Assembly (NCBI GenBank): GCA_000002435.2
Contig: CM018793.1
DNA from: Giardia intestinalis
Taxonomy: Eukaryota
Direction: 5' to 3' (one strand)
Length of the DNA: 64,000 nucleotides
Shown: positions 9,624-31,778 of the stretch, in pieces
How positions within the stretch are numbered: the stretch's first letter is position 1
How the letters are laid out: each line of letters opens with the position of its first letter
Made by a program: the position numbers and the translations under genes
Notes under the pieces: model-generated
Database searches by the model: none
Told to the model about the DNA's origin: nothing
Seen by the model: the letters and a program-made list of their open reading frames with translations, nothing else

Positions 9624-9776
9624 CGCTGTTTAATAAATGAGTGTGGCCGGGCCCCTGCGCCGGGCTGGCGCTCGGGGGCGTCGGCGGGCTCTGGGAGGGC
9701 CGACTCTGCCCCGGGCCCCGGAGCCTTAAGTGCCCTCCGCGGGCAAGGACTGCCCGAAATTATTCGGGGAAGGCGT

Positions 9777-13543: not shown

Positions 13544-15691
13544 GTGCGACCAGGCCAGCGGGCTCCCCCCTGGGGCAGCCCTCGGAGTGGGAGTCTCAGA
13601 GAGGAGGCCGCCGGGGCACCCCCACCCGCTGCGCGCAATCCGGTCCACACCACAGCCTCTCTACTGATACCCCTGTTCGTGGTGAGCGCGCTTGCAGTAA
13701 CCTGCCAGACCGGCAAGTGCGAGACGGTCGGATCAGCCGAGATTTGCACCCAGTGCAGGGCCGGGGGCGTCCCGGTCGACGGCTTCTGCTGGCCCCCCGG
13801 CTCCCCCCAGGCCGCGGCAGCCGGGTGCACCGAGGAAGACGGGGCTACCCTCGACAAGACGGCAACCACCTGCGGGAAGTGCGGCGACGGGTACTTCCTC
13901 TTCATGGGAGGGTGCTACAAGGTAGGACAAGATCCTGGCAGTGAGATATGCACAACAGCCAGTGATGGAGTGTGTACTACTTGTAAGACAGATAACGGCC
14001 TGTTCAAGAACCCGGCTACAGCACCGAAGCCTGGTAGTGAGTGCATCCTGTGCTCTGATATCAAGGGAGCAGATGGATATACGGGAGTAGAGAACTGCGC
14101 ACAGTGTACCAAGTCAGACAGTAACAAGGGGGCTGCCACGTGTACAGAATGCCAAGATGGATATTATAAAGATGCTAAAGGCGCATGTGTACAATGCCAG
14201 GGGAACTGCGCCACTTGTGAGACATCGGCGACCCAGTGTACCTCTTGTAAAGCGGGCTTCTATCTGAAGGACGGCAATAGCTGTGTGGCAGAAGGAGAAT
14301 GCACAAACACCGTTTATCCTGACCCAGAGTCGGGGAAGTGCAAGGCATGTAGTACAATAACTGATTGCACAGAATGCTCCTTCGACAAGGCCACGGGGAA
14401 GCCTCAGTGCACAGCCTGCGGTAGTCAGAAGACCCCCAGGACGACCCTTGATGGGACCTCGACCTGCGTCGATAAAACGCTTGACGGGTGCAAGGGCGCT
14501 GACGGGGCCTTATTTATGAAGGACGATACCACATGCGCCCTTTGCGGCGATGCGTCCCCTGGCGCTGGCGCAAACGATAAGGGGATTGCCGGGTGTAAGA
14601 CATGTACTAAGCAGCAAAGTCAGAAACCAGAATGCACAAGTTGTTTGGATGGATACTTCTTTGAACAGTCATCAAAGACTTGTTCGGCTTGTGCCTCCAA
14701 CTGTGCCACCTGCACGTCAGCTGATGTGTCAACTTGTACTGAGTGCCTTCCTGGGTACTTCCTAAAAACCGAGGGTGAAACGAAGTGTGCTGCATGCGAC
14801 AGTACACCAGATGGTGGCCGCGAAGGGTGCAGTCTATGTTCTAGCAACGGTGGATTTAAGTGCACTGAATGTAAGCCTAACTATAAGAAGCAGTCCAATG
14901 GAGGAGCAGGGGATGACTATACGTGTACAAAGGTGTGTGAAGACCCCACTGCTTGTGGGGGGACAGCTGGCTCTTGTGATGCCATAGTGATCGGTGCTGA
15001 TGGAAAGGAGCTTCACTATTGCTCATACTGTGGGGAGAGTACTAAGGTACCAATTGATGGCATCTGTGCTACTGATAAGAAAGGTAATACTTGTAACAGT
15101 CATACATGTACACAGTGTGCTCAAGGGTACTTCTTATACATGAATGGCTGTTACAAGGTTGGTCAAGAACCAGGTAGTCATATGTGCAAGACAGCAGGTA
15201 ATACTGGGATATGCACAGAAGCGGCCAACAATAGATACTTCGTAGTCCCAGAGGCAACCAATGCTCAGCAGTCTGTACTAGCATGTGGTAACCCATTAGG
15301 CACACTAATAGGTACTCAAGACAATGCTAAGGCATACGTGGGGGTCGAGGGCTGCTCCCAGTGTACAGCCCCAGTAGCTCTGACTGAGGCTGGTATGGCT
15401 GCCGCTACATGCACCTCCTGTGACAGTGATAAGAAGCCCAACAAGGATGGCACCGGGTGTGTGCTGTGCTCTGTGGGTGATTGCAAGAGCTGTGTGGTGG
15501 ATGATGTGTGTGGGGAGTGTGTTGATGGGTACAGTCTAGACAGCAGTGGGACCTCCTGTGTGTCTATGAGTACCAACAGGAGCGGGCTCTCCACGGGGGC
15601 CATCGCGGGGATCTCCGTCGCTGTGGTCGTCGTCGTGGGGGGCCTCGTGGGCTTCCTCTGCTGGTGGTTCATATGTAGAGGGAAGGCATGA
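13544..15691 (+). CDS. Variant-specific surface protein (VSP) copy V1; has a signal-peptide-like N-terminal region but no in-frame ATG, so possibly a pseudogene
   Basis: Classic VSP: SLLIPLFVVSALAVTCQTGKCETVG...CTQC..GGVPVDGFC, many CxxC motifs, GGCY motifs, a TM segment (AIAGISVAVVVVVGGLVGFLCWWF) and a CRGKA tail. The ORF-track start is GTG. The signal-peptide codons begin at about 13656 but the Met position is tct (Ser). The 5' 380 bp are GC-rich. Confidence 0.8.
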   Translation: MRPGQRAPPWGSPRSGSLREEAAGAPPPAARNPVHTTASLLIPLFVVSALAVTCQTGKCETVGSAEICTQCRAGGVPVDGFCWPPGSPQAAAAGCTEEDGATLDKTATTCGKCGDGYFLFMGGCYKVGQDPGSEICTTASDGVCTTCKTDNGLFKNPATAPKPGSECILCSDIKGADGYTGVENCAQCTKSDSNKGAATCTECQDGYYKDAKGACVQCQGNCATCETSATQCTSCKAGFYLKDGNSCVAEGECTNTVYPDPESGKCKACSTITDCTECSFDKATGKPQCTACGSQKTPRTTLDGTSTCVDKTLDGCKGADGALFMKDDTTCALCGDASPGAGANDKGIAGCKTCTKQQSQKPECTSCLDGYFFEQSSKTCSACASNCATCTSADVSTCTECLPGYFLKTEGETKCAACDSTPDGGREGCSLCSSNGGFKCTECKPNYKKQSNGGAGDDYTCTKVCEDPTACGGTAGSCDAIVIGADGKELHYCSYCGESTKVPIDGICATDKKGNTCNSHTCTQCAQGYFLYMNGCYKVGQEPGSHMCKTAGNTGICTEAANNRYFVVPEATNAQQSVLACGNPLGTLIGTQDNAKAYVGVEGCSQCTAPVALTEAGMAAATCTSCDSDKKPNKDGTGCVLCSVGDCKSCVVDDVCGECVDGYSLDSSGTSCVSMSTNRSGLSTGAIAGISVAVVVVVGGLVGFLCWWFICRGKA

Positions 15692-15698
15692 CTCAGGT

Positions 15699-15705
15699 AG
15701 TGAAT
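15699..15705 (+). terminator. Giardia-type polyadenylation signal AGTGAAT (AGTRAAY) 8 nt after the VSP stop codon
   Basis: The same motif sits at the same offset after every intact VSP stop, at 17496, 19387, 21261, 23152, 25043 and 26917. Confidence 0.6.
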
Positions 15706-15844
15706 GCTATACAATGTGTGATAGTGTGTGATAATGGGTGATAGAGGGTGATAGTGGAGTGAGATATGTACAAAGGCCAGTAATGGACTGTGCACTGCTT
15801 GTAAGACAGATAACAAGTACATATTCCAGAACAGGGCAGACAAG

Positions 15845-17488
15845 GTGACCCCTGGTAGTGAGTGCATCCTCTGTCATGATGCCACGGGAGCGAATGAGAA
15901 CAAAGGAGTGGCCAACTGCCTCAAGTGCACGGCACCTGGTGGCAATACAGGACCTGCCACGTGTACAGAGTGTCAAGCAGGGTTCGTTACGAAGGACAGT
16001 GCATGTGAGAAGTGCGGAGAGGGCTGCTCTGCCTGCTCAGAGAGTGATCCAAATCAATGCTCGGCATGCCTTGAGGGGAAGTATCTGAAGGGTAATGCAT
16101 GTGTAGGACCCACTGAATGTGGTGATGGTAAGTATGCAGATCCAACAACAGGCCAATGCAAGGCATGTGGAATACCTGACTGCGCCACCTGTGAGTACAA
16201 TGCAACTATTAGTCAACCACAGTGTAAGACCTGCAATAGCAATAAGATGGTGAAGACAGCGGCAGACGGGACGACCACTTGTGTCGATGATGGTGGATGT
16301 ACAAATGGCAATACGCACTTTGTTGAAGGTACTAGCCCAAAGCTTTGTGTCCCGTGCGGTGATACTACAAATGGTGGGATTCTAGGTTGTAGTACTTGCT
16401 CCTCTAAAACTACATGTACAAAGTGCCTCGACGGATATTACGATAATGATGATAGTCAAGATACAGCTACGTGTGTCGCTTGTGGTGGACAAAATTGTGA
16501 GACATGTGCTAAGGCTACGAGTGATAAATGCACGACCTGTAAGCCTGGATTCTTCTTGAAGGATAGCTCCTCTGGTGAGTGCATCTCATGTAGTGACACA
16601 GCAAATGGTGGTCGCGAAGGCTGCAGTGTCTGCTCGAATGATAGTGGATTCAAGTGCACTGACTGTAAGCCTAACTATAAGAAGCAGCTTAATGGAGGAG
16701 CAGATGATGACTATACATGTGTGAAGACCTGTGAGGATGACACTGCTTGTGGTGGTACCTCTGGTGCTTGCGATGCCATAGTGATCAATGAGAATGGAAA
16801 GGAGCTTCACTACTGTTCATACTGTGGGGATAACAGTAAGTATCCTATAGATGGAAAATGTACAAATGTCAATGCTGGAAATACAGGATGCACCAATAAT
16901 GTCTGCAAGTCTTGTACTGCAGGGTACTTCCTCTATATGGGAGGGTGTTATAAGATTGGTGCAGAACCAGGCAACCTCATGTGCAAGACCGCTGAAGGTG
17001 GTAAGTGCACTGCTGTTAATGCCAATAATAGGTACTTCGTAGTCCCAGAGGCACAGGCTACTGATCAGTCTGTGTTGGCATGTGGCAACCCCCTTGGCAC
17101 ACTAGTAGGCACTGATAGTACCTCTAAGGCATATGTGGGGGTAGATGGCTGCTCCCAGTGTACAGCCCCAGTAGCTCTGACTGAGGCTGGTATGGCTGCC
17201 GCTACATGCACCTCCTGTGACAGTGATAAGGTGCCCAACAAGGATGGCACCGGGTGTGTGCTGTGCTCTGTGGGTGATTGCAAGAGCTGTGTGGTGGATG
17301 ATGTGTGTGGGGAGTGTGTTGATGGGTACAGTCTAGACAGCAGTGGGACCTCCTGTGTGTCTATGAGTACCAACAGGAGCGGGCTCTCCACGGGGGCCAT
17401 CGCGGGGATCTCCGTCGCTGTGGTCGTCGTCGTGGGGGGCCTCGTGGGCTTCCTCTGCTGGTGGTTCATATGTAGAGGGAAGGCATGA
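15845..17488 (+). CDS. VSP copy V2, 5'-truncated (no ATG or signal peptide); candidate silent or pseudogene copy
   Basis: In-frame VSP homology (ICTKASNGLCTACKTDNKYIFQ...) begins at about 15755, right after the spacer stop codons. The track start is GTG. Ends ...WWFICRGKA then TGA. Confidence 0.8.
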   Translation: MTPGSECILCHDATGANENKGVANCLKCTAPGGNTGPATCTECQAGFVTKDSACEKCGEGCSACSESDPNQCSACLEGKYLKGNACVGPTECGDGKYADPTTGQCKACGIPDCATCEYNATISQPQCKTCNSNKMVKTAADGTTTCVDDGGCTNGNTHFVEGTSPKLCVPCGDTTNGGILGCSTCSSKTTCTKCLDGYYDNDDSQDTATCVACGGQNCETCAKATSDKCTTCKPGFFLKDSSSGECISCSDTANGGREGCSVCSNDSGFKCTDCKPNYKKQLNGGADDDYTCVKTCEDDTACGGTSGACDAIVINENGKELHYCSYCGDNSKYPIDGKCTNVNAGNTGCTNNVCKSCTAGYFLYMGGCYKIGAEPGNLMCKTAEGGKCTAVNANNRYFVVPEAQATDQSVLACGNPLGTLVGTDSTSKAYVGVDGCSQCTAPVALTEAGMAAATCTSCDSDKVPNKDGTGCVLCSVGDCKSCVVDDVCGECVDGYSLDSSGTSCVSMSTNRSGLSTGAIAGISVAVVVVVGGLVGFLCWWFICRGKA

Positions 17489-17555
17489 CTCAGGTAGTGA
17501 ATGCTATACAATGTGTGATAATGGGTAATAGAGGGTGATAGTGTGATAGTGGAGT

Positions 17556-19379
17556 GTGATATGTACAAAGGCCAGTAATGGACTGTGCACTGCTTGTAAG
17601 ACAGATAACAAGTACATATTCCAGAACAGGGCAGACAAGGTGACTCCTGGTGGGGAGTGCATCTTGTGCTCTGATATCAAGGGAGCGAATGGATATACGG
17701 GAGTGGCCAACTGTCTCAAGTGTACGGCACCAGGGAATGCAGGACCTGCCACGTGTAATACCTGTCAAGAGGGGTACTTCCTAAACAACAAGCTTTGTAA
17801 GCCATGCGAGGGGAACTGTGCCACCTGTGAGACATCGGCGACCCAGTGCACATCGTGTCCAGAGGGGAAGTACCTCAATGGGAATCAATGTACTGATAGC
17901 TGTGGTAATGATAAGTATGCTGATCCAGAGTCTGGAACGTGCATGGCATGTAGTACAATAACTGATTGCACGGCATGCAAGTACAATGCGACTGTCAGTA
18001 AGCCCCAGTGCACTAACTGTGGCAGTAAGAAGGTGAAGACGGCCATCGATGGCACCACAACGTGCGTTGATGTGAGCTCTGGATGCCAGGATGCTGATCA
18101 CTTCAAGGCAGATGGTGATGCTGCGTGTGTCTTGTGCAGCGATACCAGCGGAGATAATGAGAACACAAATAAGGGACTGGAGGGCTGTAGTGCGTGCACA
18201 AAACCTAATAACAACCAACCACCCGCTTGTACCGGATGCTTACCCGGATATTACGATTCTGCGCCCGGCACCTTCAAGTGTAAGGCCTGTGCTCCCAACT
18301 GTGCCACCTGCACTCAAATTGGAGACGATAAGTGCTTGACCTGTAAGGAGGGGTTCTTCATGAAAGTCAGTGGCCCCGGTGAGTGCGTCCCTTGTAGTGA
18401 TACAGCTAAGGATGGCATCGATGGATGTGCAACGTGCACCTTCTCTAGCTCGTTGACCTGCAACTCCTGTAAGGTGAACTACAAGCAGAGCGGTACCCCT
18501 TCAACTGGGGTCACATGCACCAGGACTTGTGAAGATGATACGGCCTGCGGGGGTACCTCTGGTGCCTGCGATGCCATGATAATTGATGATAAGGGCACCA
18601 CAAAGCACTACTGTTCATACTGTGGGGATAGTTCACAAGCTCCTATAGATGGACTATGCACTAATAACAAAGAAAGTAATACTTGTACTAGTCATACATG
18701 TACATCATGTGCTGCTAACTACTTCCTCTATATGGGTGGCTGTTATAGCACTCAGAAGGCTCCTGGCAACTACATGTGCAAGACCGCAGGTAACAATGGG
18801 ATATGCACAGAAGCGGCCAACAATAGGTACTTCGTAGTCCCAGAAGCAACCAATGCTCAACAGTCTGTCCTGGCATGTGGTAACCCCCTTGGCACACTGA
18901 CAGGCACTGGTGATACTGCTAAGGCATACGTTGGGGTGGATGGCTGCTCCCAGTGCACAGCCCCAGCAGCTCCATCTGATGGTGGTATGACCCCCGCTGT
19001 GTGCACCTCTTGTGACAATAGTAAGAAGCCCAACCTGGCTGGGAGCGGGTGCTTCCCATGTGCCGTTGTTGGATGCTCGCACTGTGATATGGACAACAAG
19101 TGCTCCGCCTGCACAGAGGGGGGCAAGAGACCCAACAAGGAAGGGACAGCATGCTTTGAATGTAACGTGGAGGGGTGCGCTTATTGTAGTGGTGCTAATA
19201 AGTGTGAAGAGTGCAGCGATGGGTTCAAATTAGAGGGTGACAAGTGCGTGTCTTCTGGCACCAACAGGAGCGGGCTGTCTACTGGCGCCATCGCGGGCAT
19301 CTCCGTCGCTGTGGTCGTCGTCGTGGGGGGCCTCGTGGGCTTCCTCTGCTGGTGGTTCCTCTGCAGGGGGAAGGCGTGA
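17556..19379 (+). CDS. VSP copy V3 (type A, copy 1), 5'-truncated with no ATG
   Basis: 607-aa ORF whose start is GTG, immediately after a spacer TAG. Ends WWFLCRGKA. Nearly identical to copies at 21321 and 23212. Confidence 0.8.
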   Translation: MICTKASNGLCTACKTDNKYIFQNRADKVTPGGECILCSDIKGANGYTGVANCLKCTAPGNAGPATCNTCQEGYFLNNKLCKPCEGNCATCETSATQCTSCPEGKYLNGNQCTDSCGNDKYADPESGTCMACSTITDCTACKYNATVSKPQCTNCGSKKVKTAIDGTTTCVDVSSGCQDADHFKADGDAACVLCSDTSGDNENTNKGLEGCSACTKPNNNQPPACTGCLPGYYDSAPGTFKCKACAPNCATCTQIGDDKCLTCKEGFFMKVSGPGECVPCSDTAKDGIDGCATCTFSSSLTCNSCKVNYKQSGTPSTGVTCTRTCEDDTACGGTSGACDAMIIDDKGTTKHYCSYCGDSSQAPIDGLCTNNKESNTCTSHTCTSCAANYFLYMGGCYSTQKAPGNYMCKTAGNNGICTEAANNRYFVVPEATNAQQSVLACGNPLGTLTGTGDTAKAYVGVDGCSQCTAPAAPSDGGMTPAVCTSCDNSKKPNLAGSGCFPCAVVGCSHCDMDNKCSACTEGGKRPNKEGTACFECNVEGCAYCSGANKCEECSDGFKLEGDKCVSSGTNRSGLSTGAIAGISVAVVVVVGGLVGFLCWWFLCRGKA

Positions 19380-19387
19380 CTTAGGTA

Positions 19388-21253
19388 GTGAATGCTGTAC
19401 AATGTGTGATAATGGGTGATAGTATGATAGTGGTGTGTGGGGGTGATAGTGATAGTACGGGACTTCTCTTCATGGGCGGGTGCTACAAGACAGAGAGTCA
19501 GCCCGGCAGTGACATATGCACACAGGCTGAGGGAGGAGTGTGCACTGCTTGTAAGGCAGATAGTCAGTACATATTCCAGAATGGGGCAGAGAAGGTGACC
19601 CCTGGTGGGGAGTGCATACTGTGCTGGGATACTATAGATAGAAACGGGGTCATGGGAGTCAAGGACTGTCTCAAGTGTACGGCACCAGCTAATAACAAGG
19701 GGGCTGCCACGTGTACAGAATGCCAAGCAGGGTACGTTAAGGATAACGCTTCTAATACGTGTAAGAAGTGCGGAGAGGGCTGCTCCGAGTGCTCAGAGAG
19801 TGATCAGCAATCGTGTACTGCCTGCTTTGAAGGGAAGTTCCTGAAGGCTGACAGTAAGACTTGTGTAGAGGCTAATCAATGTGGTAATGATAAGTATGCA
19901 GACCCGACAACAGGCCAATGTAAGGCATGCACAGACACAAGTGTCAATGAATGTGCTACGTGTACATACAGCGACACTCTTCAGAAGCCGGTGTGCACTG
20001 GATGCGGGGGCCAAAAGCCGCTTCTCAAGCAAAAAGCTGATGGCACAGTAGAATGTGTTGATGATGGCGGCTGCCCTACTGGTGATACCCACTTCCTTGA
20101 ACAATATCCAAAGGCTTGTGTCCCATGTGGTGATAATACACGAGGCGGCGTTGTCGGATGTAGCACCTGCACTGCAAAGGGAGGGTGCTCTGCCTGTTTA
20201 GCTGGGTATATAAAAGAGGGAAGTAGCGACCCAGTTACATGCACCCCCTGTCACGCCAACTGTGCTACATGCTCTGCTGCTGGCAAGGATAAGTGTGATA
20301 CATGCAAGCCAGGGTACTTCATGAAAGGCAGTGGTCCTACTGGTGAGTGCGTTGCTTGTGACAGTGAAGCCGACAATGGCATCGAGGGCTGTGGTGCATG
20401 CACAAACGATGGCGGTGCTTTCAAGTGCACCGATTGCAAGCCCAACTATCGCAAGCAGAGCGATAGCAGTTCTGGCTCTGTTACATGTACAAAGGTGTGT
20501 GAAGATGATACTGCCTGCGGGGGCACTTCTGGTGCCTGCGATGCAATAGTGATTGATGCTAATGGAAAGGAGCTTCATTATTGTTCTTATTGTGGGGATA
20601 ACAGTAAGGTACCAATTGATGGCATCTGTGCTACTGATAAGAAAGGTAATACTTGTAACAGTCATACATGTACACAGTGTGCTCAAGGGTACTTCTTATA
20701 CATGAATGGCTGTTACAAGGTTGGTCAAGAACCAGGTAGTCATATGTGCAAGACAGCAGGTAATACTGGGATATGCACAGAAGCGGCCAACAATAGATAC
20801 TTCGTAGTCCCAGAGGCAACCAATGCTCAGCAGTCTGTACTAGCATGTGGTAACCCATTAGGCACACTAATAGGTACTCAAGACAATGCTAAGGCATACG
20901 TGGGAGTGGATGGCTGCTCCCAGTGTACAGCCCCAGTAGCTCTGACTGATGGTGGTATGACCCCTGCTATATGTACCTCCTGTGACAGTGATAAGAAGCC
21001 CAACAAGGATGGCACCGGGTGTGTGCTGTGCTCTGTGGGTGATTGCAAGAGCTGTGTGGTGGATGATGTGTGTGGGGAGTGTGTTGATGGGTACAGTCTA
21101 GACAGCAGTGGGACCTCCTGTGTGTCTATGAGTACCAACAGGAGCGGGCTCTCCACGGGGGCCATCGCGGGGATCTCCGTCGCTGTGGTCGTCGTCGTGG
21201 GGGGCCTCGTGGGCTTCCTCTGCTGGTGGTTCATATGTAGAGGGAAGGCATGA
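19388..21253 (+). CDS. VSP copy V4 (type B, copy 1), lacks a signal peptide; first in-frame ATG at 19412
   Basis: 621-aa ORF whose start is GTG. The reading frame runs through the translated TGATAGTG spacer repeat (VIMGDSMIVVCGGDSDS). Ends WWFICRGKA. Confidence 0.8.
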   Translation: MNAVQCVIMGDSMIVVCGGDSDSTGLLFMGGCYKTESQPGSDICTQAEGGVCTACKADSQYIFQNGAEKVTPGGECILCWDTIDRNGVMGVKDCLKCTAPANNKGAATCTECQAGYVKDNASNTCKKCGEGCSECSESDQQSCTACFEGKFLKADSKTCVEANQCGNDKYADPTTGQCKACTDTSVNECATCTYSDTLQKPVCTGCGGQKPLLKQKADGTVECVDDGGCPTGDTHFLEQYPKACVPCGDNTRGGVVGCSTCTAKGGCSACLAGYIKEGSSDPVTCTPCHANCATCSAAGKDKCDTCKPGYFMKGSGPTGECVACDSEADNGIEGCGACTNDGGAFKCTDCKPNYRKQSDSSSGSVTCTKVCEDDTACGGTSGACDAIVIDANGKELHYCSYCGDNSKVPIDGICATDKKGNTCNSHTCTQCAQGYFLYMNGCYKVGQEPGSHMCKTAGNTGICTEAANNRYFVVPEATNAQQSVLACGNPLGTLIGTQDNAKAYVGVDGCSQCTAPVALTDGGMTPAICTSCDSDKKPNKDGTGCVLCSVGDCKSCVVDDVCGECVDGYSLDSSGTSCVSMSTNRSGLSTGAIAGISVAVVVVVGGLVGFLCWWFICRGKA

Positions 21254-21320
21254 CTCAGGTAGTGAATGCTATACAATGTGTGATAATGGGTAATAGAGGG
21301 TGATAGTGTGATAGTGGAGT

Positions 21321-23144
21321 GTGATATGTACAAAGGCCAGTAATGGACTGTGCACTGCTTGTAAGACAGATAACAAGTACATATTCCAGAACAGGGCAGA
21401 CAAGGTGACTCCTGGTGGGGAGTGCATCTTGTGCTCTGATATCAAGGGAGCGAATGGATATACGGGAGTGGCCAACTGTCTCAAGTGTACGGCACCAGGG
21501 AATGCAGGACCTGCCACGTGTAATACCTGTCAAGAGGGGTACTTCCTAAACAACAAGCTTTGTAAGCCATGCGAGGGGAACTGTGCCACCTGTGAGACAT
21601 CGGCGACCCAGTGCACATCGTGTCCAGAGGGGAAGTACCTCAATGGGAATCAATGTACTGATAGCTGTGGTAATGGTAAGTATGCTGATCCAGAGTCTGG
21701 AACGTGCATGGCATGTAGTACAATAACTGATTGCACGGCATGCAAGTACAATGCGACTGTCAGTAAGCCCCAGTGCACTAACTGTGGCAGTAAGAAGGTG
21801 AAGACGGCCATCGATGGCACCACAACGTGCGTTGATGTGAGCTCTGGATGCCAGGATGCTGATCACTTCAAGGCAGATGGTGATGCTGCGTGTGTCTTGT
21901 GCAGCGATACCAGCGGAGATAATGAGAACACAAATAAGGGACTGGAGGGCTGTAGTGCGTGCACAAAACCTAATAACAACCAACCACCCGCTTGTACCGG
22001 ATGCTTACCCGGATATTACGATTCTGCGCCCGGCACCTTCAAGTGTAAGGCCTGTGCTCCCAACTGTGCCACCTGCACTCAAATTGGAGACGATAAGTGC
22101 TTGACCTGTAAGGAGGGGTTCTTCATGAAAGTCAGTGGCCCCGGTGAGTGCGTCCCTTGTAGTGATACAGCTAAGGATGGCATCGATGGATGTGCAACGT
22201 GCACCTTCTCTAGCTCGTTGACCTGCAACTCCTGTAAGGTGAACTACAAGCAGAGCGGTACCCCTTCAACTGGGGTCACATGCACCAGGACTTGTGAAGA
22301 TGATACGGCCTGCGGGGGTACCTCTGGTGCCTGCGATGCCATGATAATTGATGATAAGGGCACCACAAAGCACTACTGTTCATACTGTGGGGATAGTTCA
22401 CAAGCTCCTATAGATGGACTATGCACTAATAACAAAGAAAGTAATACTTGTACTAGTCATACATGTACATCATGTGCTGCTAACTACTTCCTCTATATGG
22501 GTGGCTGTTATAGCACTCAGAAGGCTCCTGGCAACTACATGTGCAAGACCGCAGGTAACAATGGGATATGCACAGAAGCGGCCAACAATAGGTACTTCGT
22601 AGTCCCAGAAGCAACCAATGCTCAACAGTCTGTCCTGGCATGTGGTAACCCCCTTGGCACACTGACAGGCACTGGTGATACTGCTAAGGCATACGTTGGG
22701 GTGGATGGCTGCTCCCAGTGCACAGCCCCAGCAGCTCCATCTGATGGTGGTATGACCCCCGCTGTGTGCACCTCTTGTGACAATAGTAAGAAGCCCAACC
22801 TGGCTGGGAGCGGGTGCTTCCCATGTGCCGTTGTTGGATGCTCGCACTGTGATATGGACAACAAGTGCTCCGCCTGCACAGAGGGGGGCAAGAGACCCAA
22901 CAAGGAAGGGACAGCATGCTTTGAATGTAACGTGGAGGGGTGCGCTTATTGTAGTGGTGCTAATAAGTGTGAAGAGTGCAGCGATGGGTTCAAATTAGAG
23001 GGTGACAAGTGCGTGTCTTCTGGCACCAACAGGAGCGGGCTCTCCACGGGGGCCATCGCGGGGATCTCCGTCGCTGTGGTCGTCGTCGTGGGGGGCCTCG
23101 TGGGCTTCCTCTGCTGGTGGTTCATATGTAGAGGGAAGGCATGA
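21321..23144 (+). CDS. VSP copy V5 (type A, copy 2)
   Basis: Differs from A1 and A3 by point or patch changes (CGNGKYADP instead of CGNDKYADP). Its 3' end is the B/V2 type (WWFICRGKA). Confidence 0.8.
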   Translation: MICTKASNGLCTACKTDNKYIFQNRADKVTPGGECILCSDIKGANGYTGVANCLKCTAPGNAGPATCNTCQEGYFLNNKLCKPCEGNCATCETSATQCTSCPEGKYLNGNQCTDSCGNGKYADPESGTCMACSTITDCTACKYNATVSKPQCTNCGSKKVKTAIDGTTTCVDVSSGCQDADHFKADGDAACVLCSDTSGDNENTNKGLEGCSACTKPNNNQPPACTGCLPGYYDSAPGTFKCKACAPNCATCTQIGDDKCLTCKEGFFMKVSGPGECVPCSDTAKDGIDGCATCTFSSSLTCNSCKVNYKQSGTPSTGVTCTRTCEDDTACGGTSGACDAMIIDDKGTTKHYCSYCGDSSQAPIDGLCTNNKESNTCTSHTCTSCAANYFLYMGGCYSTQKAPGNYMCKTAGNNGICTEAANNRYFVVPEATNAQQSVLACGNPLGTLTGTGDTAKAYVGVDGCSQCTAPAAPSDGGMTPAVCTSCDNSKKPNLAGSGCFPCAVVGCSHCDMDNKCSACTEGGKRPNKEGTACFECNVEGCAYCSGANKCEECSDGFKLEGDKCVSSGTNRSGLSTGAIAGISVAVVVVVGGLVGFLCWWFICRGKA

Positions 23145-23211
23145 CTCAGGTAGTGAATGCTATACAATGTGTGATAATGGGTAATAGAGGGTGATAGTGT
23201 GATAGTGGAGT

Positions 23212-25035
23212 GTGATATGTACAAAGGCCAGTAATGGACTGTGCACTGCTTGTAAGACAGATAACAAGTACATATTCCAGAACAGGGCAGACAAGGTGAC
23301 TCCTGGTGGGGAGTGCATCTTGTGCTCTGATATCAAGGGAGCGAATGGATATACGGGAGTGGCCAACTGTCTCAAGTGTACGGCACCAGGGAATGCAGGA
23401 CCTGCCACGTGTAATACCTGTCAAGAGGGGTACTTCCTAAACAACAAGCTTTGTAAGCCATGCGAGGGGAACTGTGCCACCTGTGAGACATCGGCGACCC
23501 AGTGCACATCGTGTCCAGAGGGGAAGTACCTCAATGGGAATCAATGTACTGATAGCTGTGGTAATGATAAGTATGCTGATCCAGAGTCTGGAACGTGCAT
23601 GGCATGTAGTACAATAACTGATTGCACGGCATGCAAGTACAATGCGACTGTCAGTAAGCCCCAGTGCACTAACTGTGGCAGTAAGAAGGTGAAGACGGCC
23701 ATCGATGGCACCACAACGTGCGTTGATGTGAGCTCTGGATGCCAGGATGCTGATCACTTCAAGGCAGATGGTGATGCTGCGTGTGTCTTGTGCAGCGATA
23801 CCAGCGGAGATAATGAGAACACAAATAAGGGACTGGAGGGCTGTAGTGCGTGCACAAAACCTAATAACAACCAACCACCCGCTTGTACCGGATGCTTACC
23901 CGGATATTACGATTCTGCGCCCGGCACCTTCAAGTGTAAGGCCTGTGCTCCCAACTGTGCCACCTGCACTCAAATTGGAGACGATAAGTGCTTGACCTGT
24001 AAGGAGGGGTTCTTCATGAAAGTCAGTGGCCCCGGTGAGTGCGTCCCTTGTAGTGATACAGCTAAGGATGGCATCGATGGATGTGCAACGTGCACCTTCT
24101 CTAGCTCGTTGACCTGCAACTCCTGTAAGGTGAACTACAAGCAGAGCGGTACCCCTTCAACTGGGGTCACATGCACCAGGACTTGTGAAGATGATACGGC
24201 CTGCGGGGGTACCTCTGGTGCCTGCGATGCCATGATAATTGATGATAAGGGCACCACAAAGCACTACTGTTCATACTGTGGGGATAGTTCACAAGCTCCT
24301 ATAGATGGACTATGCACTAATAACAAAGAAAGTAATACTTGTACTAGTCATACATGTACATCATGTGCTGCTAACTACTTCCTCTATATGGGTGGCTGTT
24401 ATAGCACTCAGAAGGCTCCTGGCAACTACATGTGCAAGACCGCAGGTAACAATGGGATATGCACAGAAGCGGCCAACAATAGGTACTTCGTAGTCCCAGA
24501 AGCAACCAATGCTCAACAGTCTGTCCTGGCATGTGGTAACCCCCTTGGCACACTGACAGGCACTGGTGATACTGCTAAGGCATACGTTGGGGTGGATGGC
24601 TGCTCCCAGTGCACAGCCCCAGCAGCTCCATCTGATGGTGGTATGACCCCCGCTGTGTGCACCTCTTGTGACAATAGTAAGAAGCCCAACCTGGCTGGGA
24701 GCGGGTGCTTCCCATGTGCCGTTGTTGGATGCTCGCACTGTGATATGGACAACAAGTGCTCCGCCTGCACAGAGGGGGGCAAGAGACCCAACAAGGAAGG
24801 GACAGCATGCTTTGAATGTAACGTGGAGGGGTGCGCTTATTGTAGTGGTGCTAATAAGTGTGAAGAGTGCAGCGATGGGTTCAAATTAGAGGGTGACAAG
24901 TGCGTGTCTTCTGGCACCAACAGGAGCGGGCTGTCTACTGGCGCCATCGCGGGCATCTCCGTCGCTGTGGTCGTCGTCGTGGGGGGCCTCGTGGGCTTCC
25001 TCTGCTGGTGGTTCCTCTGCAGGGGGAAGGCGTGA
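23212..25035 (+). CDS. VSP copy V6 (type A, copy 3), protein identical to A1
   Basis: 607-aa ORF. It is part of the second copy of the 3.77 kb duplicated unit. Confidence 0.8.
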   Translation: MICTKASNGLCTACKTDNKYIFQNRADKVTPGGECILCSDIKGANGYTGVANCLKCTAPGNAGPATCNTCQEGYFLNNKLCKPCEGNCATCETSATQCTSCPEGKYLNGNQCTDSCGNDKYADPESGTCMACSTITDCTACKYNATVSKPQCTNCGSKKVKTAIDGTTTCVDVSSGCQDADHFKADGDAACVLCSDTSGDNENTNKGLEGCSACTKPNNNQPPACTGCLPGYYDSAPGTFKCKACAPNCATCTQIGDDKCLTCKEGFFMKVSGPGECVPCSDTAKDGIDGCATCTFSSSLTCNSCKVNYKQSGTPSTGVTCTRTCEDDTACGGTSGACDAMIIDDKGTTKHYCSYCGDSSQAPIDGLCTNNKESNTCTSHTCTSCAANYFLYMGGCYSTQKAPGNYMCKTAGNNGICTEAANNRYFVVPEATNAQQSVLACGNPLGTLTGTGDTAKAYVGVDGCSQCTAPAAPSDGGMTPAVCTSCDNSKKPNLAGSGCFPCAVVGCSHCDMDNKCSACTEGGKRPNKEGTACFECNVEGCAYCSGANKCEECSDGFKLEGDKCVSSGTNRSGLSTGAIAGISVAVVVVVGGLVGFLCWWFLCRGKA

Positions 25036-25043
25036 CTTAGGTA

Positions 25044-26909
25044 GTGAATGCTGTACAATGTGTGATAATGGGTGATAGTATGATAGTGGTGTGTGGGGGT
25101 GATAGTGATAGTACGGGACTTCTCTTCATGGGCGGGTGCTACAAGACAGAGAGTCAGCCCGGCAGTGACATATGCACACAGGCTGAGGGAGGAGTGTGCA
25201 CTGCTTGTAAGGCAGATAGTCAGTACATATTCCAGAATGGGGCAGAGAAGGTGACCCCTGGTGGGGAGTGCATACTGTGCTGGGATACTATAGATAGAAA
25301 CGGGGTCATGGGAGTCAAGGACTGTCTCAAGTGTACGGCACCAGCTAATAACAAGGGGGCTGCCACGTGTACAGAATGCCAAGCAGGGTACGTTAAGGAT
25401 AACGCTTCTAATACGTGTAAGAAGTGCGGAGAGGGCTGCTCCGAGTGCTCAGAGAGTGATCAGCAATCGTGTACTGCCTGCTTTGAAGGGAAGTTCCTGA
25501 AGGCTGACAGTAAGACTTGTGTAGAGGCTAATCAATGTGGTAATGATAAGTATGCAGACCCGACAACAGGCCAATGTAAGGCATGCACAGACACAAGTGT
25601 CAATGAATGTGCTACGTGTACATACAGCGACACTCTTCAGAAGCCGGTGTGCACTGGATGCGGGGGCCAAAAGCCGCTTCTCAAGCAAAAAGCTGATGGC
25701 ACAGTAGAATGTGTTGATGATGGCGGCTGCCCTACTGGTGATACCCACTTCCTTGAACAATATCCAAAGGCTTGTGTCCCATGTGGTGATAATACACGAG
25801 GCGGCGTTGTCGGATGTAGCACCTGCACTGCAAAGGGAGGGTGCTCTGCCTGTTTAGCTGGGTATATAAAAGAGGGAAGTAGCGACCCAGTTACATGCAC
25901 CCCCTGTCACGCCAACTGTGCTACATGCTCTGCTGCTGGCAAGGATAAGTGTGATACATGCAAGCCAGGGTACTTCATGAAAGGCAGTGGTCCTACTGGT
26001 GAGTGCGTTGCTTGTGACAGTGAAGCCGACAATGGCATCGAGGGCTGTGGTGCATGCACAAACGATGGCGGTGCTTTCAAGTGCACCGATTGCAAGCCCA
26101 ACTATCGCAAGCAGAGCGATAGCAGTTCTGGCTCTGTTACATGTACAAAGGTGTGTGAAGATGATACTGCCTGCGGGGGCACTTCTGGTGCCTGCGATGC
26201 AATAGTGATTGATGCTAATGGAAAGGAGCTTCATTATTGTTCTTATTGTGGGGATAACAGTAAGGTACCAATTGATGGCATCTGTGCTACTGATAAGAAA
26301 GGTAATACTTGTAACAGTCATACATGTACACAGTGTGCTCAAGGGTACTTCTTATACATGAATGGCTGTTACAAGGTTGGTCAAGAACCAGGTAGTCATA
26401 TGTGCAAGACAGCAGGTAATACTGGGATATGCACAGAAGCGGCCAACAATAGATACTTCGTAGTCCCAGAGGCAACCAATGCTCAGCAGTCTGTACTAGC
26501 ATGTGGTAACCCATTAGGCACACTAATAGGTACTCAAGACAATGCTAAGGCATACGTGGGGGTCGAGGGCTGCTCCCAGTGTACAGCCCCAGTAGCTCTG
26601 ACTGAGGCTGGTATGGCTGCCGCTACATGCACCTCCTGTGACAGTGATAAGAAGCCCAACAAGGATGGCACCGGGTGTGTGCTGTGCTCTGTGGGTGATT
26701 GCAAGAGCTGTGTGGTGGATGATGTGTGTGGGGAGTGTGTTGATGGGTACAGTCTAGACAGCAGTGGGACCTCCTGTGTGTCTATGAGTACCAACAGGAG
26801 CGGGCTCTCCACGGGGGCCATCGCGGGGATCTCCGTCGCTGTGGTCGTCGTCGTGGGGGGCCTCGTGGGCTTCCTCTGCTGGTGGTTCATATGTAGAGGG
26901 AAGGCATGA
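25044..26909 (+). CDS. VSP copy V7 (type B, copy 2)
   Basis: 621 aa. Near-identical to B1 except for a 3' patch (VEGCSQCTAPVALTEAGMAAATC) that matches V1. Confidence 0.8.
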   Translation: MNAVQCVIMGDSMIVVCGGDSDSTGLLFMGGCYKTESQPGSDICTQAEGGVCTACKADSQYIFQNGAEKVTPGGECILCWDTIDRNGVMGVKDCLKCTAPANNKGAATCTECQAGYVKDNASNTCKKCGEGCSECSESDQQSCTACFEGKFLKADSKTCVEANQCGNDKYADPTTGQCKACTDTSVNECATCTYSDTLQKPVCTGCGGQKPLLKQKADGTVECVDDGGCPTGDTHFLEQYPKACVPCGDNTRGGVVGCSTCTAKGGCSACLAGYIKEGSSDPVTCTPCHANCATCSAAGKDKCDTCKPGYFMKGSGPTGECVACDSEADNGIEGCGACTNDGGAFKCTDCKPNYRKQSDSSSGSVTCTKVCEDDTACGGTSGACDAIVIDANGKELHYCSYCGDNSKVPIDGICATDKKGNTCNSHTCTQCAQGYFLYMNGCYKVGQEPGSHMCKTAGNTGICTEAANNRYFVVPEATNAQQSVLACGNPLGTLIGTQDNAKAYVGVEGCSQCTAPVALTEAGMAAATCTSCDSDKKPNKDGTGCVLCSVGDCKSCVVDDVCGECVDGYSLDSSGTSCVSMSTNRSGLSTGAIAGISVAVVVVVGGLVGFLCWWFICRGKA

Positions 26910-26966
26910 CTCAGGTAGTGAATGCTATACAATGTGTGATAATGGGTGATAGTATGATAGTGGAGT

Positions 26967-28658
26967 GTGATATGCACAGCAGCCAGTAGTGGAGTGTGCA
27001 CTGAGTGTAATACAAATAGTCAGTACATATTCCAGAACCCTGCTACAGCACCAGAGAAGGGTAGCGAGTGCATCCTGTGCTGGGATACCAAGGGAGCAGA
27101 TGGATATACGGGAGTGGAGAACTGCGCCACATGTACAGCACCAAGCACCCCAACGGCTGCCACGTGTGATACCTGTCAAGATGGATACTATAAAGATGGT
27201 AACGGCGCATGTACCAAATGTCATACCGACTGCGAGACGTGTAATGGAGCTGATCAGAATGCGTGCACCTCTTGTAAGGATGGAAAGTATCTGAAAGGTG
27301 GAAATACGTGTTCATCTACATGTGAAGGAAACACTTACCCTGACCCTGTGACAAGGACATGCAAGGATTCTAGTATAGTAGATTGCACCACGTGTGAGTA
27401 CAACCCGGCAACTGGGGGCCCAAAGTGCACAGCCTGTAACGGTAAGATAGTCAAGGAAGAGGCCGACGGGACGACAACGTGCGTCGAGGCAAATGGGTGC
27501 GCTCGAGATGGCCAAGCAGGCACGCACTTTCTGAGTGACAACAACGATAAGTGCATTCTGTGTAGCGATACAACAACAGGAACAGGAGCAAGTAACCAAG
27601 GAAAGGACAACTGTAAGACATGTACTAAGGCTGGTTCAGGACAAGCACCGGAATGTTCAGAGTGTCTGGATGGATTCTTCTTTGAAAAGTCATCAAAGAC
27701 TTGTTCGGCTTGTCATCAGAACTGTGCTACGTGCTCTGAAGCTACGACAGAAAATAGGTGCGAGTCCTGCTATCCAGGATACTTCTTGGTTGTATCTGGT
27801 GCTGATAAAAAGTGTGTCCCATGCGATGATGCACAGAATCAAGGGATCGAGGGCTGTGCCGAGTGCACTGGTACTACAGGATCCCTCAAGTGCACAAAGT
27901 GCAAGCCTAACAGGAAGCTCGCTGGAAACGAGGGGGACCTCACATGCACAGAGAAGACCTGTGAAGATGATACTGCCTGCGGGGGGACATCTGGAGCCTG
28001 CGATGCCATAGTGATTGATGATCAGGGCAATGCAAAGCACTACTGTTCCTATTGTGGGGATAACAGTAAGGTACCAATTGATGGGAAGTGTGTTGATAGT
28101 GGTCAAAAGAATGGGAATACTTGTACCAGTCACATATGTACACAATGCACCAACAACTACTTCCTCTACATGGGAGGGTGTTATAAAGCAACAGAGGTGC
28201 CTGGTAGCTATATGTGCAAGACAGCAGATAATAAGGGGATATGCACAGAGGCGGCCAACAATAAGTACTTCATAGTCCCAGGGGCATCCAATCAGAATCA
28301 GTCTGTACTAGCATGTGGTAACCCCCTAGGCACACTAGTAGATACTAAGGCATACGTGGGGGTCGAGGGCTGCTCTCAGTGTACAGCCCCGACAGCTCTA
28401 ACAACAGCTGGCATGACCGCTGCTGTGTGTACCTCTTGTGGTGAGAGTAAGAAGCCCAACAAGGATGGCACTGGGTGTGTGCTGTGCTCTGTGGGTGATT
28501 GCAAGAGCTGTGTGATGGATAATATATGTGGGGAGTGCAACAGTGGCTTCAGCATAGACAATGGTAAGTGCGTGTCCTCTGGCAGTAATAGGAGCGGGCT
28601 CTCCACGGGGGCCATCGCGGGGATCTCCGTGGCTGGTCTCGTTGGGCTTCTGTGTTAG
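26967..28658 (+). pseudogene. VSP copy V8, truncated at both ends (TM disrupted, CRGKA tail and poly(A) signal lost)
   Basis: Protein ends ...GAIAGISVAGLVGLLC then a stop. Relative to intact copies, about 18 nt are deleted and the sequence then diverges into GC-rich DNA at about 28650. There is no AGTGAAT after the stop. Confidence 0.75.
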
Positions 28659-29276
28659 TGATGACTACTGGCCCGGGGTGGGCATCCGCTGTCCATCCGC
28701 CCGGTGCTGCTACGTGCCCGTGGAGGTCTGGACGCCCGCTGCAACCAGGGTGGAGAGAGTCGGCGCTGCAGCACCCCCGCTGGGTCTCGCCGTGAGTGAG
28801 GGCAGAAGCTCTCGGGGGCCCCGGGGGCAATGCCTGATGTGCAGAGCAGTGGACAGCTCAGCCGTGGATTTAAAATAGCGCGTCGCTCGATGGCGCTCCC
28901 CGGCCTGCCGAAGCAGCGGGTGCTCGACTGCGTAGCATAGGCGCCGAACCACGCCTGCAGCCGTGGGAGGCCGGCGCAGCATGGGCGGTCCCTGCACCGG
29001 GTGGCTCGGACCCGCCACCCGGCCGTTGCGTGCAGGCACCGCCCACTCGGTCCGCTCGGCTGGCCTCTGCAAAAGACCGGCACACGGAGTGGCAGGACCT
29101 GTGCACCCCCGAGGGACAGGGGCTCGACTCGCCCTCTGAGGATCGCTCCGTGCCGACTCCGGGCCCGCCGTTCGACCACGCGGAGGCCGGGCATCCGGGA
29201 GCCTCCACAGCAGAGGTAGTGTGGCGGATCCTTGCTGATCCGGACACATTAAAAACTTGTATCCTCAGGGATTCAC

Positions 29277-31778
29277 ATGAGGGTTCTCATCCTTCTTCTT
29301 CTGCACGGTATTTTCTCAGAGTGCACCCAGGACAGCGACTGCGGGGGTGCGACCGGCGTCTGCAACGTCACGATCGGCGGCAAGAAGTACTGCTCCAAGT
29401 GCGACGGAGCGCGGGTCCCCGTCAACGGAGACTGCAGGCTGCTGAGCCTCTCGCGGGGTATATGCATAGTGCCCACGGGCAGCAACCCCACTCCGGGCTC
29501 CTGCTCGGGCTGCATCCGGGACTTCCTCTTCTACAGGGGCGGGTGCTACCGCACGGCATCCCTGATCAACGCCATATGCAAGGAGAAGCACATCGTCGAG
29601 GAGGGGATGTACTGCGGGGCATGCGCCATCGAGGGCGACGTCCCGATCGACGGGGTGTGCGTGCCGGCTGGGAGTGCTGCGGGGAACACGTGCAGTAAGG
29701 GCGTGTGCACAACATGCACAGGCGGCTACTTCCTCCACTACGGGTCGTGCTACAAGTTTGATAGTTCTCCAGGCAGCATTGTGTGTCCTAATCAATCTGA
29801 CACCACTGGCTCTGTCTGCGGCTCTTGCGGATCGAAGTTCGTCAAGAACCCCAGTGCGAGCTCGTCTGCCACCTCCTGCCTCGCGTGCTACGGGCTGGAC
29901 GGGACTCTCTTCTGCGAGCGCTGCCGGATGAACGTGCTCACGGGCGCAGACGCGAAGCCCACCCTCTGCACGCAGTGCCAAATAGGCTACGTGCCCGTCG
30001 ACGGCCGGTGCCTCTCCAACTACTCCGCCCTGGCCGCGCTCGCCGGGTGCTCCGACCCCCGGGGCAACGGGCTCTGCGACGCGTGCTCCTCCGGCTTCAT
30101 GCTCTTCTACGGGAGCTGCTACTCCGTCGACGGCCCCCTCGCCCAGGCCATCTGCGCGGCCGAGGACCAGATCTACGTCAACGGCCGGGTGCTCTGCAAG
30201 AGGTGCGCCCAGCCCGACCACTACCCCCTGAACGGCGTCTGCATCGGCCAGAGCTCGGACGGGACCGACGGACACACGTGCAGCGGCGGGTCGTGCACGG
30301 CCTGCAGCACCAAGCAGACCGCAGACGGTACCCCCGAGTTCTTCCTGTTCTACAGCGGCTGCTACGACATCACCCACCCCATCGGGAAGTCGATCTGCTC
30401 CGCTGTAGCTGATGGCGCCTGCACAGCATGCGCGTCCTCGGACTCCTCGAGTGTGATAACCATCACTGCAGATGGCCAGTCATCCAAGTGCCTCGCCTGC
30501 TGGGACGACACGGTGGGGGGAGTAGCCAACTGCGGGGGCTGCTCGCTCGCCAGTGATGGCCCCGCCAAGGTTGTGTGCACCAGGTGCTCGGACTCGACGG
30601 AGCCCGGCGAGGACAATACGTGCCCCCGAGCCCTCCCGCCCGCAACGCCTGAAGGGTGCGCCGTCCAGGGCTGCCAGGCGTGCTCGAAGGACTCTGCCAC
30701 GACGTGCGACGCCTGCTTCGAGCCTCTCATCATGAAGGAGGACAAGACGAAGTGCTTCGGGAGCTGCCTGGCGCTGGGCCCGGGCTACTACAACGCCAGC
30801 GGGACCTGTGCGCGCTGCGTGGAGAACTGTCTCTCCTGCGTAGACGGGACCTCGTGCTCCCGGTGCGCAGACGGGTACTACCTCGAGGTGTCCGGCAGCG
30901 ACTCCTCAACGGGGGCGTGCAGGCCGTGTGCCGCCGGGTGCTCCACGTGTAATAACGGCAGCAGCACGGGTTGCACGACGTGTCTCCTCGGATACTACAT
31001 CGCGGCCGAGGGAAAAAGGCAACCTGGGCAGTGCGTGAAGTGTGACTCCGATGGAAACGGTTATGTGGGCGTCCAGCACTGCATTGTCTGCCGCAGCACC
31101 GTGGGGGACGGGGGAGCCAAGAACGTCGTCTGCCAGAAGTGCGAGGACGGGTATCTCAAGGAGACGGACCAGGGCAAGACCGTCTGCGAGGCGCCCCCGC
31201 CCACATGCACCGTGGAGCTGTGCGCTCTGTGCGTGGCCGACGACCCCAATAGATGCGAGCACTGCACGGCCGGCGCGTACCTCTGCCCGCGGACGGCGGC
31301 GTGCACGAAGGACTGCGCCAGCTGCGGCGGCTCGATGTACCCCGACGAGGACCTCGGGGAGTGCCAGCCGTGCGACATTGCGAACTGCCGGGTCTGCGCG
31401 ACGGGGCTCAAGTGCGAGAGCTGCGCGGAGAACGCCGTCCCCATCTCCCCGGACGTCTACCACACGGCGTGCATGGGCTGCAGCGACACCGGGGGCATGG
31501 ACGGCTGGGTGGGCCTCGCGGGGTGCACGACCTGCGAGCTGACCGACAAGGGCGGCGGGAGCGTCAACTGCCTCGACCCTGGCTACTACCGGCGGGGCGG
31601 GCTCGGCGGGGGAGCAATCGCCGCCATCGTCATCGTCGTCCTCCTCGTCCTGGCCGTCGCCGGCTTCCTCGTCTGGTGGTTCGTCTTCAGGAGGGGCGGC
31701 CGGCCCAGACGCGGCGGGACAAAGTACACGTCGCTCATGCGGGGCGAGTCCTACGACTACCGCCAGTCCCTGATATGA
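29277..31778 (+). CDS. High-cysteine membrane protein (HCMP), GC-rich
   Basis: Signal peptide MRVLILLLLHGIFSEC. Many CxxC and GGCY motifs (FLFYRGGCY, FLHYGSCY). C-terminal TM (GGAIAAIVIVVLLVLAVAGFLVWWF) with a basic cytoplasmic tail that is not CRGKA. ATG at 29277 is preceded by attaaaaacttgtatcc. Confidence 0.85.
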   Translation: MRVLILLLLHGIFSECTQDSDCGGATGVCNVTIGGKKYCSKCDGARVPVNGDCRLLSLSRGICIVPTGSNPTPGSCSGCIRDFLFYRGGCYRTASLINAICKEKHIVEEGMYCGACAIEGDVPIDGVCVPAGSAAGNTCSKGVCTTCTGGYFLHYGSCYKFDSSPGSIVCPNQSDTTGSVCGSCGSKFVKNPSASSSATSCLACYGLDGTLFCERCRMNVLTGADAKPTLCTQCQIGYVPVDGRCLSNYSALAALAGCSDPRGNGLCDACSSGFMLFYGSCYSVDGPLAQAICAAEDQIYVNGRVLCKRCAQPDHYPLNGVCIGQSSDGTDGHTCSGGSCTACSTKQTADGTPEFFLFYSGCYDITHPIGKSICSAVADGACTACASSDSSSVITITADGQSSKCLACWDDTVGGVANCGGCSLASDGPAKVVCTRCSDSTEPGEDNTCPRALPPATPEGCAVQGCQACSKDSATTCDACFEPLIMKEDKTKCFGSCLALGPGYYNASGTCARCVENCLSCVDGTSCSRCADGYYLEVSGSDSSTGACRPCAAGCSTCNNGSSTGCTTCLLGYYIAAEGKRQPGQCVKCDSDGNGYVGVQHCIVCRSTVGDGGAKNVVCQKCEDGYLKETDQGKTVCEAPPPTCTVELCALCVADDPNRCEHCTAGAYLCPRTAACTKDCASCGGSMYPDEDLGECQPCDIANCRVCATGLKCESCAENAVPISPDVYHTACMGCSDTGGMDGWVGLAGCTTCELTDKGGGSVNCLDPGYYRRGGLGGGAIAAIVIVVLLVLAVAGFLVWWFVFRRGGRPRRGGTKYTSLMRGESYDYRQSLI

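Follow-up and report, generated by a model that had tools for sequence, protein, structure and literature searches.

The window analysed here, a stretch of 64,000 nucleotides from the Giardia intestinalis WB reference genome, contains a head-to-tail linear array of eight VSP pseudogene units at 13544-28658 on the plus strand, delineated using the map of open reading frames and stops, Pfam matches and CRGKA-TGA ends. The units occur in the order U1, U2, A, B, A, A, B, U8 (hereafter U1, U2, U3A, U4B, U5A, U6A, U7B and U8) and were matched to the Pfam VSP model (PF03302) with E-values of 1e-33 to 1e-46. The tail …WWF[IL]CRGKA-TGA closes seven of the eight, at 15689, 17486, 19377, 21251, 23142, 25033 and 26907. 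The last unit, U8, is 3'-truncated: it is cut inside the transmembrane domain (…GLVGLLC-TAG, within 28560-28660, TAG at 28656), lacks both CRGKA and a poly(A) signal and is followed directly by GC-rich sequence, and this truncation is the 3' edge of the array. The seven spacers, measured from the stop codon to the start of body homology, are 54-77 nt long.

Outside the array, two housekeeping proteins encoded at 35340-38831 and 53145-54548 match G. intestinalis WB GL50803_0021198 and the actin-related protein KAE8304739.1 exactly. Short-read assemblies of WB-like samples matched the window at 99.97% or better, all of them ending at or beyond 33,925 and none entering the array. A full-length Rfam match (166.6 bits) to the H/ACA snoRNA GlsR24 is located on the minus strand at 9640-9786, approximately 4 kb upstream of the array. 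Just downstream of the array lie two GC-rich (60-67%) genes for cysteine-rich membrane proteins, at 29277-31778 and 32673-34028, which match the Pfam VSP model and have tails other than CRGKA (…WWFVFRRGG… and …FLCWWFLYRGKRIGASSSTVGLVQSKSM); the tail of the second is similar to truncated or altered tails that a 2022 preprint mentions (bioRxiv 10.1101/2022.03.07.483299).

Units 2-8 have neither a signal peptide nor a usable start and open straight into mid-VSP sequence, the first in-frame ATG being found 131-403 codons into the A units, U2 and U8, and inside the repeat described below in the B units. U1 displays the leader-like sequence SLLIPLFVVSALA with no preceding ATG or initiator (13630-13720), so that even this first unit, although it heads the array, looks like a pseudogene. 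The GC-rich region upstream of the U1 leader is also present at a solitary VSP in contig L007 (9940-10030) and at the N-terminus of protein P0025. In published linear arrays the spacers average about 60 bp, initiator, ATG and signal peptide are missing from the downstream members, the CRGKA tails are conserved, neighbours are closely related to each other and there is evidence of recombination (Adam et al., 2010, PMC2996952; Xu et al., 2020, PMC7000408); pseudo-VSPs have likewise been reported to sit in arrays without start codons, and the linear-array members of WB have been hypothesised to be silent, either as silent cassettes or as discarded genes. The array at 13544-28658 shares with these the head-to-tail arrangement with short spacers, the downstream members without initiator PyAATGTT, start or signal peptide, and the transmembrane domain and CRGKA tail (in seven of the eight units). 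Judged by these sequence features, it is a VSP "linear array", or pseudo-VSP array, of the published kind.

A common layout was observed directly at all seven internal junctions (J1-J7), consisting of the stop codon, an extended poly(A) signal, an 11-nt box with the sequence TATACAATGTG, 27-50 nt of TGATAG-type units and a 5'-truncated VSP body. At J4, the stop codon TGA (21251-21253) is followed on the plus strand by the VSP-specific extended poly(A) signal ACTCAGGTAGTGAATGC (21253-21269, with the AGTGAA hexamer at 21261-21266), by the conserved box TATACAATGTG (21270-21280), which is invariant or nearly so across junctions and reads TGTACAATGTG in J3 and J6, by the micro-repeat tract (21281-21317) and by the first bases of the truncated body, AGTGTGATATGTACA (S-V-I-C-T, 21318-21332), which were placed by local alignment to full-length U1 from 13940. 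The stretch 21254-21320 reads as the earlier note had described it, a poly(A) signal joined to a short degenerate repeat, with the exception of its last proposed unit: 'agtgtgatatg' is VSP coding sequence (S-V-I-C), which aligns to the S-E-I-C-T codons of U1 (13940 onward), and the spacer proper ends at 21317. A search with the 30-nt core TGACTCAGGTAGTGAATGCTATACAATGTG returned seven matches, starting at the seven CRGKA-TGA positions given above (15689 to 26907), five of them exact and two with 2 substitutions, where 0 were expected by chance. The single consensus that had been proposed for every spacer accordingly describes five of the seven junctions, J3 and J6 differing from it at two positions. 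The points at which the body is entered are few, namely …GLLFMGGCY in the B copies and S-x-I-C-T in the A copies.

The hexamer AGTGAA is a Giardia poly(A) hexamer of the AGURAA type, and the first 17 nt of the spacers correspond to the published extended signal ACUUAGRUAGURAAYRY, which was reported beside VSPs or pseudo-VSPs in 323 of 327 cases (bioRxiv preprint 10.1101/2022.03.07.483299). This signal is present at all seven junctions, where its first base is also the last of the stop codon; it is exact in J3 and J6 and has one mismatch in the other five (at J4, C for U at position 4), and its hexamer starts 7 nt after the stop, inside the published limit of about 28 nt. What the array junctions add to the published motif is the conserved box beyond it. 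From the reported hexamer-to-cleavage distance of 13-16 nt in Giardia (bioRxiv 10.1101/2022.03.07.483299), poly(A) cleavage is predicted at approximately 21274-21277, inside the 11-nt box. The poly(A) signal and about 10 further conserved bases form, with the stop, a 27-nt block of the length of a normal VSP 3'UTR; given the same cleavage distance, this block would be about one VSP 3'UTR long, with the repeat beginning just past it. The hexamer was AGTGAA in 12/12 array junctions (those of the window and of contigs L013 and L014), creating an ATG in AGTGAATG, and AGTAAA in 7/7 solitary VSP sites (contigs L007-L011).

The position of the tract raises the question of a role in RNA processing or expression, either as a GU-rich downstream element boosting cleavage or as a stop-rich insulator against read-through into the next unit. 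The tract is G/T-rich and starts about 5-8 nt past the predicted cleavage point, the 3' flanks of several solitary VSPs show the same G/T-richness directly behind the poly(A) signal, and the A-type spacers contain stops in all three frames. However, in the B-type spacers the body frame stays open from the poly(A) signal on, and no auxiliary elements are known from Giardia. The literature describes a depletion of GU-rich motifs behind the cleavage sites of this organism, reports no GU-rich downstream elements for it and names candidates for CstF of low confidence only; the idea of a GU-rich downstream element was rejected on these published data. Furthermore, the pseudo-VSPs of G. muris, most of which are in arrays, are reported to be essentially all untranscribed, and the WB linear arrays are hypothesised to be silent. 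A role of this kind is therefore considered highly improbable.

The micro-repeat tract of J4, which is of the A type, is 37 nt long and consists of the units tgataatggg, taatagaggg, tgatagtg and tgatagtgg. Identical 37-nt tracts were found at J2 (17516-17552) and J5 (23172-23208), while J1 (15719-15757) has 39 nt in four units (10+10+10+9). The B-type tracts of J3 (19407-19456, with VSP-body homology from 19457) and J6 (25063-25112) are identical to each other, 50 nt long and read in frame as IMGDSMIVVCGGDSDS. J7 (26937-26963, 27 nt) is a hybrid allele with an A-type left flank, a repeat equal to the first 27 nt of the J3/J6 tract and an A-type body entry; compared with J2, J4 and J5, it has exactly one decamer fewer and one substitution. 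The seven junctions thus comprise four alleles (J1; J2=J4=J5; J3=J6; J7) of 39, 37, 50 and 27 nt. The window contains 25 copies of the motif TGATARTG where 4.7 are expected; none of 100 shuffles reached 25, and 20 of the 25 copies lie within the seven spacers, although the junctions are copies of each other and this enrichment does not represent seven independent events. Period-10 and period-8 arrays were detected in every spacer by Tandem Repeats Finder. With tandem units above chance and a copy number that varies between junctions, the tracts qualify as mini/microsatellites. Like ordinary ones, they are built of imperfect tandem units of 6-10 nt, the number of which differs from one paralogous junction to another; unlike them, they mix periods of 10, 8 and 6 nt and occupy a fixed place, after a poly(A) signal and before a truncated coding body.

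The microsatellite-like variation in unit number that had been claimed for the spacers was thus observed directly, both between the junctions of the window (27, 37, 39 and 50 nt) and between other arrays. The B copies are read through in frame, as had also been proposed, the body frame being open from 19385 and 25041. The further statement that 19412 and 25068 are the only in-frame ATGs of these copies was incorrect, as there are nine in-frame ATGs, and 19412 and 19424 (25068 and 25080 in the second copy) are just those inside the repeat. RNA folding of the spacers on both strands gave no structure beyond that of shuffled sequences (z = -0.06, +2.2 and +0.86). Two other readings of the tracts were considered and set aside. 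A G-quadruplex was rejected by eye, the tracts of the window having at most two GGG runs. The Giardia telomere repeat is TAGGG, and likeness to it was discounted by eye in the same manner, as the tracts contain only TAGAGGG and TAGTGG-like strings. A scan for sigma-70 promoters and terminators remained at chance level and is irrelevant in a eukaryote.

The same junction layout was also observed in two unrelated Giardia contigs, L013 and L014, from independent ENA metagenomes. Of the three junctions in L013, one has a tract of 72 nt made up of eight units and another leads into a mini-unit of 70 aa; the two junctions in L014 have tracts of 30 nt, in which three decamers run into TGATATGCACA. 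The body of L013 is 66% identical to U4B at the nucleotide level, and the 27-nt 3'UTR-plus-box block is identical at 26 of 27 positions. Four array VSPs of WB in the 2007 annotation (XP_001706653, XP_001707663, XP_001707667 and XP_001703902), the bodies of which are at most 65% identical to the units of the window, have N-termini that fit this junction, beginning MLYSDSDSDSAMWCGGDSGG…, MLYSDSDSAMWCGGDS… or MIVLCG…GDSDS… and falling into the types MLYSDSDS(DS)AMWCGGDS… and MIVLCG…GDSDS. On back-translation, these N-termini are consistent with MLY being encoded by the ATG inside AGTGAATGCTATAC and with (DS)n representing (GATAGT)n in 2 versus 3 copies.

Neither the box nor the repeat was found after seven solitary VSP poly(A) sites, six of them distinct, in contigs L007-L011 (assemblages A-like, B and E), all of which carry the extended signal with AGTAAA, and no tandem TGATAR clusters were detected elsewhere in 217 kb of Giardia DNA. 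The control contigs L008-L012 represent assemblage B (GS-B, Nepal and other metagenomes) and assemblage E (P15) and contain solitary or loosely linked VSPs, with no tight junction from a CRGKA stop to a next unit. On this small comparison set of 12 array junctions and seven solitary poly(A) sites, with just one solitary VSP likely to be of assemblage A, the motif was present in other arrays and was not seen after unrelated genes or solitary VSPs; the proposal of an array-specific junction repeat consequently withstood the two observations that had been named as counting against it, namely a motif common downstream of unrelated genes or missing from other arrays. Other searches were negative: the conserved VSP 3' end had 0 matches in JGI metagenome contigs, the B-unit ORF and WB proteins P0044 and P0054 had no exact-protein database match, and a profile of the junction-derived N-terminal peptides, a query too short for this purpose, gave no match at E <= 0.001 among 5.8 billion proteins.

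Tight junctions of another style were noticed in assemblage-B contigs (L012, 4114-4190; L010, minus strand, approximately 1368-1376). Here the downstream VSP unit retains its signal peptide, its start being GTG (caGTGTTGTTAGCAATC) or missing, and it follows an upstream unit with a non-CRGKA end after about 40 nt or less, without the TGATAG repeat. In addition, many assemblage-B 'partial VSP' proteins (P0018, P0033, P0053, P0055 and others; L008, 5040-5100) start with VNDPAGVSIDSLCRP…, and the GTG AAC of these starts corresponds to the AGTGAAC of a poly(A)-signal-like hexamer following the conserved GGTGCCAACAGTGTG, which suggests another recurrent, lineage-specific junction type.

An origin of the box and repeat may be sought in the 5' end of downstream genes that were once complete. 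According to this explanation, CAATGTG would derive from the initiator CAATGTT and TGATAG from leader codons (TTG ATA GCC or CTG ATA CCC, L-I), the latter having been amplified by slippage and fused by deletion to internal coding sequence; in a variant, the repeat would have been seeded by the coding motif C-G-(G)-D-S (TGT GGG GGT GAT AGT), which is next to the tract in the B copies. The CAATGTG of the box agrees with the VSP initiator CAATGTT, itself almost exclusive to VSP genes, at six of seven positions; ACAATGT also forms the start context of a complete P15 VSP in L009; the VSP leaders of U1 and L007 contain CTGATACCC, i.e. (C/T)TGATA; and the downstream unit in L012 retains a leader with its ATG changed to GTG. 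The variant draws on the B-type tract running into tgtgggggtgatagtgatagt-ACGGGACTTCTCTTCATGGG, in which C-G-G-D resembles the C-G-D-G-Y-F-L-F-M-G-G of the full-length unit. However, these likenesses are short and were noticed after the fact, no intermediate junction with more of the leader, and none that would decide between a leader and a coding-motif seed, was found, and the U1 alignment stops at 19457 with no confident extension. The box does not contain an exact PyAATGTT starting a leader frame; the frame of its ATG stops after 5 codons (ATG TGT GAT AAT GGG TAA/TGA). Such a 5' origin is regarded as a tentative and rather doubtful possibility; it is compatible with a repeat that is passive today.

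In order to relate the junctions to recombination in the array, the units were compared with one another. U3A and U6A are identical over 1891 bp, and an A-B higher-order repeat of 3765 bp is present at 17489-21253 and 23145-26909 with 99.7% identity, its A parts being 100% identical. U4B and U7B differ at 11 positions, all of which fall inside a 70-bp patch at 20905-20974 on the plus strand (unit comparison, alignment columns 100-135). In this patch U4B reads DGGMTPAICTSC, like the A units, and U7B reads EAGMAAATCTSC, so that the patch looks like a segmental gene-conversion tract within the coding body. U5A (21254-23144) differs from U3A at one position in the body and at 10 positions confined to the last 103 nt, and is a chimera: it is of A type up to gtgtcttctggc, continues with the 17-nt ACCAACAGGAGCGGGCT common to all units (23025-23041, plus strand) and ends with a tail of the U1/U2/U4B/U7B type. 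The switch from an A-type to a B/U1/U2-type tail within this 17-nt interval, which was defined by tail alignment and a check of the flanks, was observed directly. It places the exchange that created the A-A adjacency outside the spacer, some 100 nt before the stop codon, where the conserved tail encodes the transmembrane region. U5A provides the single array-expanding crossover that could be mapped. The C-W-W codons of the tails (…CTGCTGGTGGTTC…) also contain the octamer GCTGGTGG, at 15660, 17457, 19348, 21222, 23113, 25004, 26878 and 33949, which is the E. coli Chi sequence; its occurrence in the VSP tails of a eukaryote is almost certainly a coincidence.

These comparisons bear on the proposal that the conserved repetitive junction acts as the homology tract suggested in the earlier note, or as a hotspot, for the unequal crossover that expands and contracts the array. 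The repeat is found at every junction and is common to different arrays, its unit number varies, and J7 has a B-type repeat between a left flank and an entry that are both of A type, which is the only hint of exchange within the repeat tract. The likeness to short TG-rich recombination motifs, also mentioned in the earlier note, is an impression. The proposal was nevertheless not supported by the units themselves, as the sole mappable expanding exchange, that of U5A, is located at 23025-23041 in the coding tail, upstream of the stop. Furthermore, unit homology of 1.9-3.8 kb at 99.7-100% identity is available, which dwarfs an imperfect tract of just 27-50 nt and makes such a tract unnecessary for unequal crossover. 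A crossover hotspot in the spacer is accordingly considered unlikely.

Silent cassettes in other antigenic-variation systems are flanked by recombination elements, examples being the 70-bp repeats of T. brucei and the conserved recombination junction element (CRJE) of Pneumocystis MSG genes. Giardia arrays have been likened to these systems in general terms (PMC7641422). By analogy, the 27-nt 3'UTR-plus-box block and the TGATAG minisatellite might together constitute a dedicated cassette-boundary element, which would set the 5' limit of gene conversion or aid the microhomology-mediated joining of truncated bodies. A more remote variant starts from the fact that the units are 5'-truncated and end approximately where poly(A) cleavage is predicted; their addition might then have passed through an RNA intermediate. 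The resemblance to the T. brucei and Pneumocystis elements lies in a short conserved or repetitive element directly upstream of each silent, 5'-incomplete arrayed cassette, paired with a conserved 3' end. Unlike those elements, the Giardia element was not found beside complete VSP genes and would thus have no partner at an expressible locus, although the sample is small: no tandem TGATAR cluster was found near the complete or solitary VSPs of L007-L011. The recombination endpoints do not fall in the element either, the U5A breakpoint (23025-23041) being in the tail and the U4B/U7B patch (20905-20974) in the body, and antigen switching in Giardia is reported in the literature to be epigenetic or post-transcriptional rather than by DNA rearrangement. 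We regard a boundary element as quite improbable; if true, it would shape the silent antigen reservoir.

The reading that we favour, and consider likely, is that the spacers are ordinary junctions of a silent VSP-pseudogene array of WB carrying a passive, slippage-prone minisatellite, and that the array expands via the unit bodies and the 3' coding tail. Each junction would consist of the 27-nt stop/poly(A)/box block, an imperfect minisatellite of 8-10-nt TGATAG units and a direct fusion to a VSP body cut at one of a few 5' entry points. The minisatellite units would be gained and lost by replication slippage or small misaligned exchanges, and the repeat, copied passively with each duplication of a unit, is probably without a separate role; this analysis yielded no evidence of an independent function. 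Growth and homogenisation of the array would rely on homologous recombination, for which the long, nearly identical bodies and the conserved 3' coding tail would provide the substrate, and not on the spacer. Three observations argue against a purely passive repeat. Both the 27-nt block and the occurrence of a repeat are much more strongly conserved than the bodies, a difference that could be explained by selection and not only by homogenisation; the hybrid J7 indicates that some exchange or slippage happens within the spacer; and the truncations of the B-type and A-type units and of the 70-aa mini-unit of L013 all abut the repeat, hinting at a part in the formation of the junctions.

Linear arrays, spacers of about 60 bp and the extended poly(A) signal are already published. 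The published array descriptions give the length of the spacers and not their sequence, and neither the TGATAG-type micro-repeat nor the 11-nt box features in them; both appear to be undescribed details. A full-text literature search combining Giardia and TGATAG returned nothing on VSP array junctions, by title or abstract, among the matches listed. The junction signature, AGTGAATGCTRTACAATGTG followed by TGATAG units, could serve as a simple marker to find and count array units, and the length of the tract might be a polymorphism of use in typing. The silent VSP-pseudogene arrays of Giardia are suspected donors for new surface antigens, and little has been described of how the units of these arrays come to be joined, duplicated and exchanged. 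The anatomy of these junctions can now be given at the level of single bases: the extended poly(A) signal is followed by the 11-nt box and a variable minisatellite, and the truncated bodies begin at a few discrete 5' points. At least one crossover that expanded the array took place in the conserved transmembrane-coding tail.
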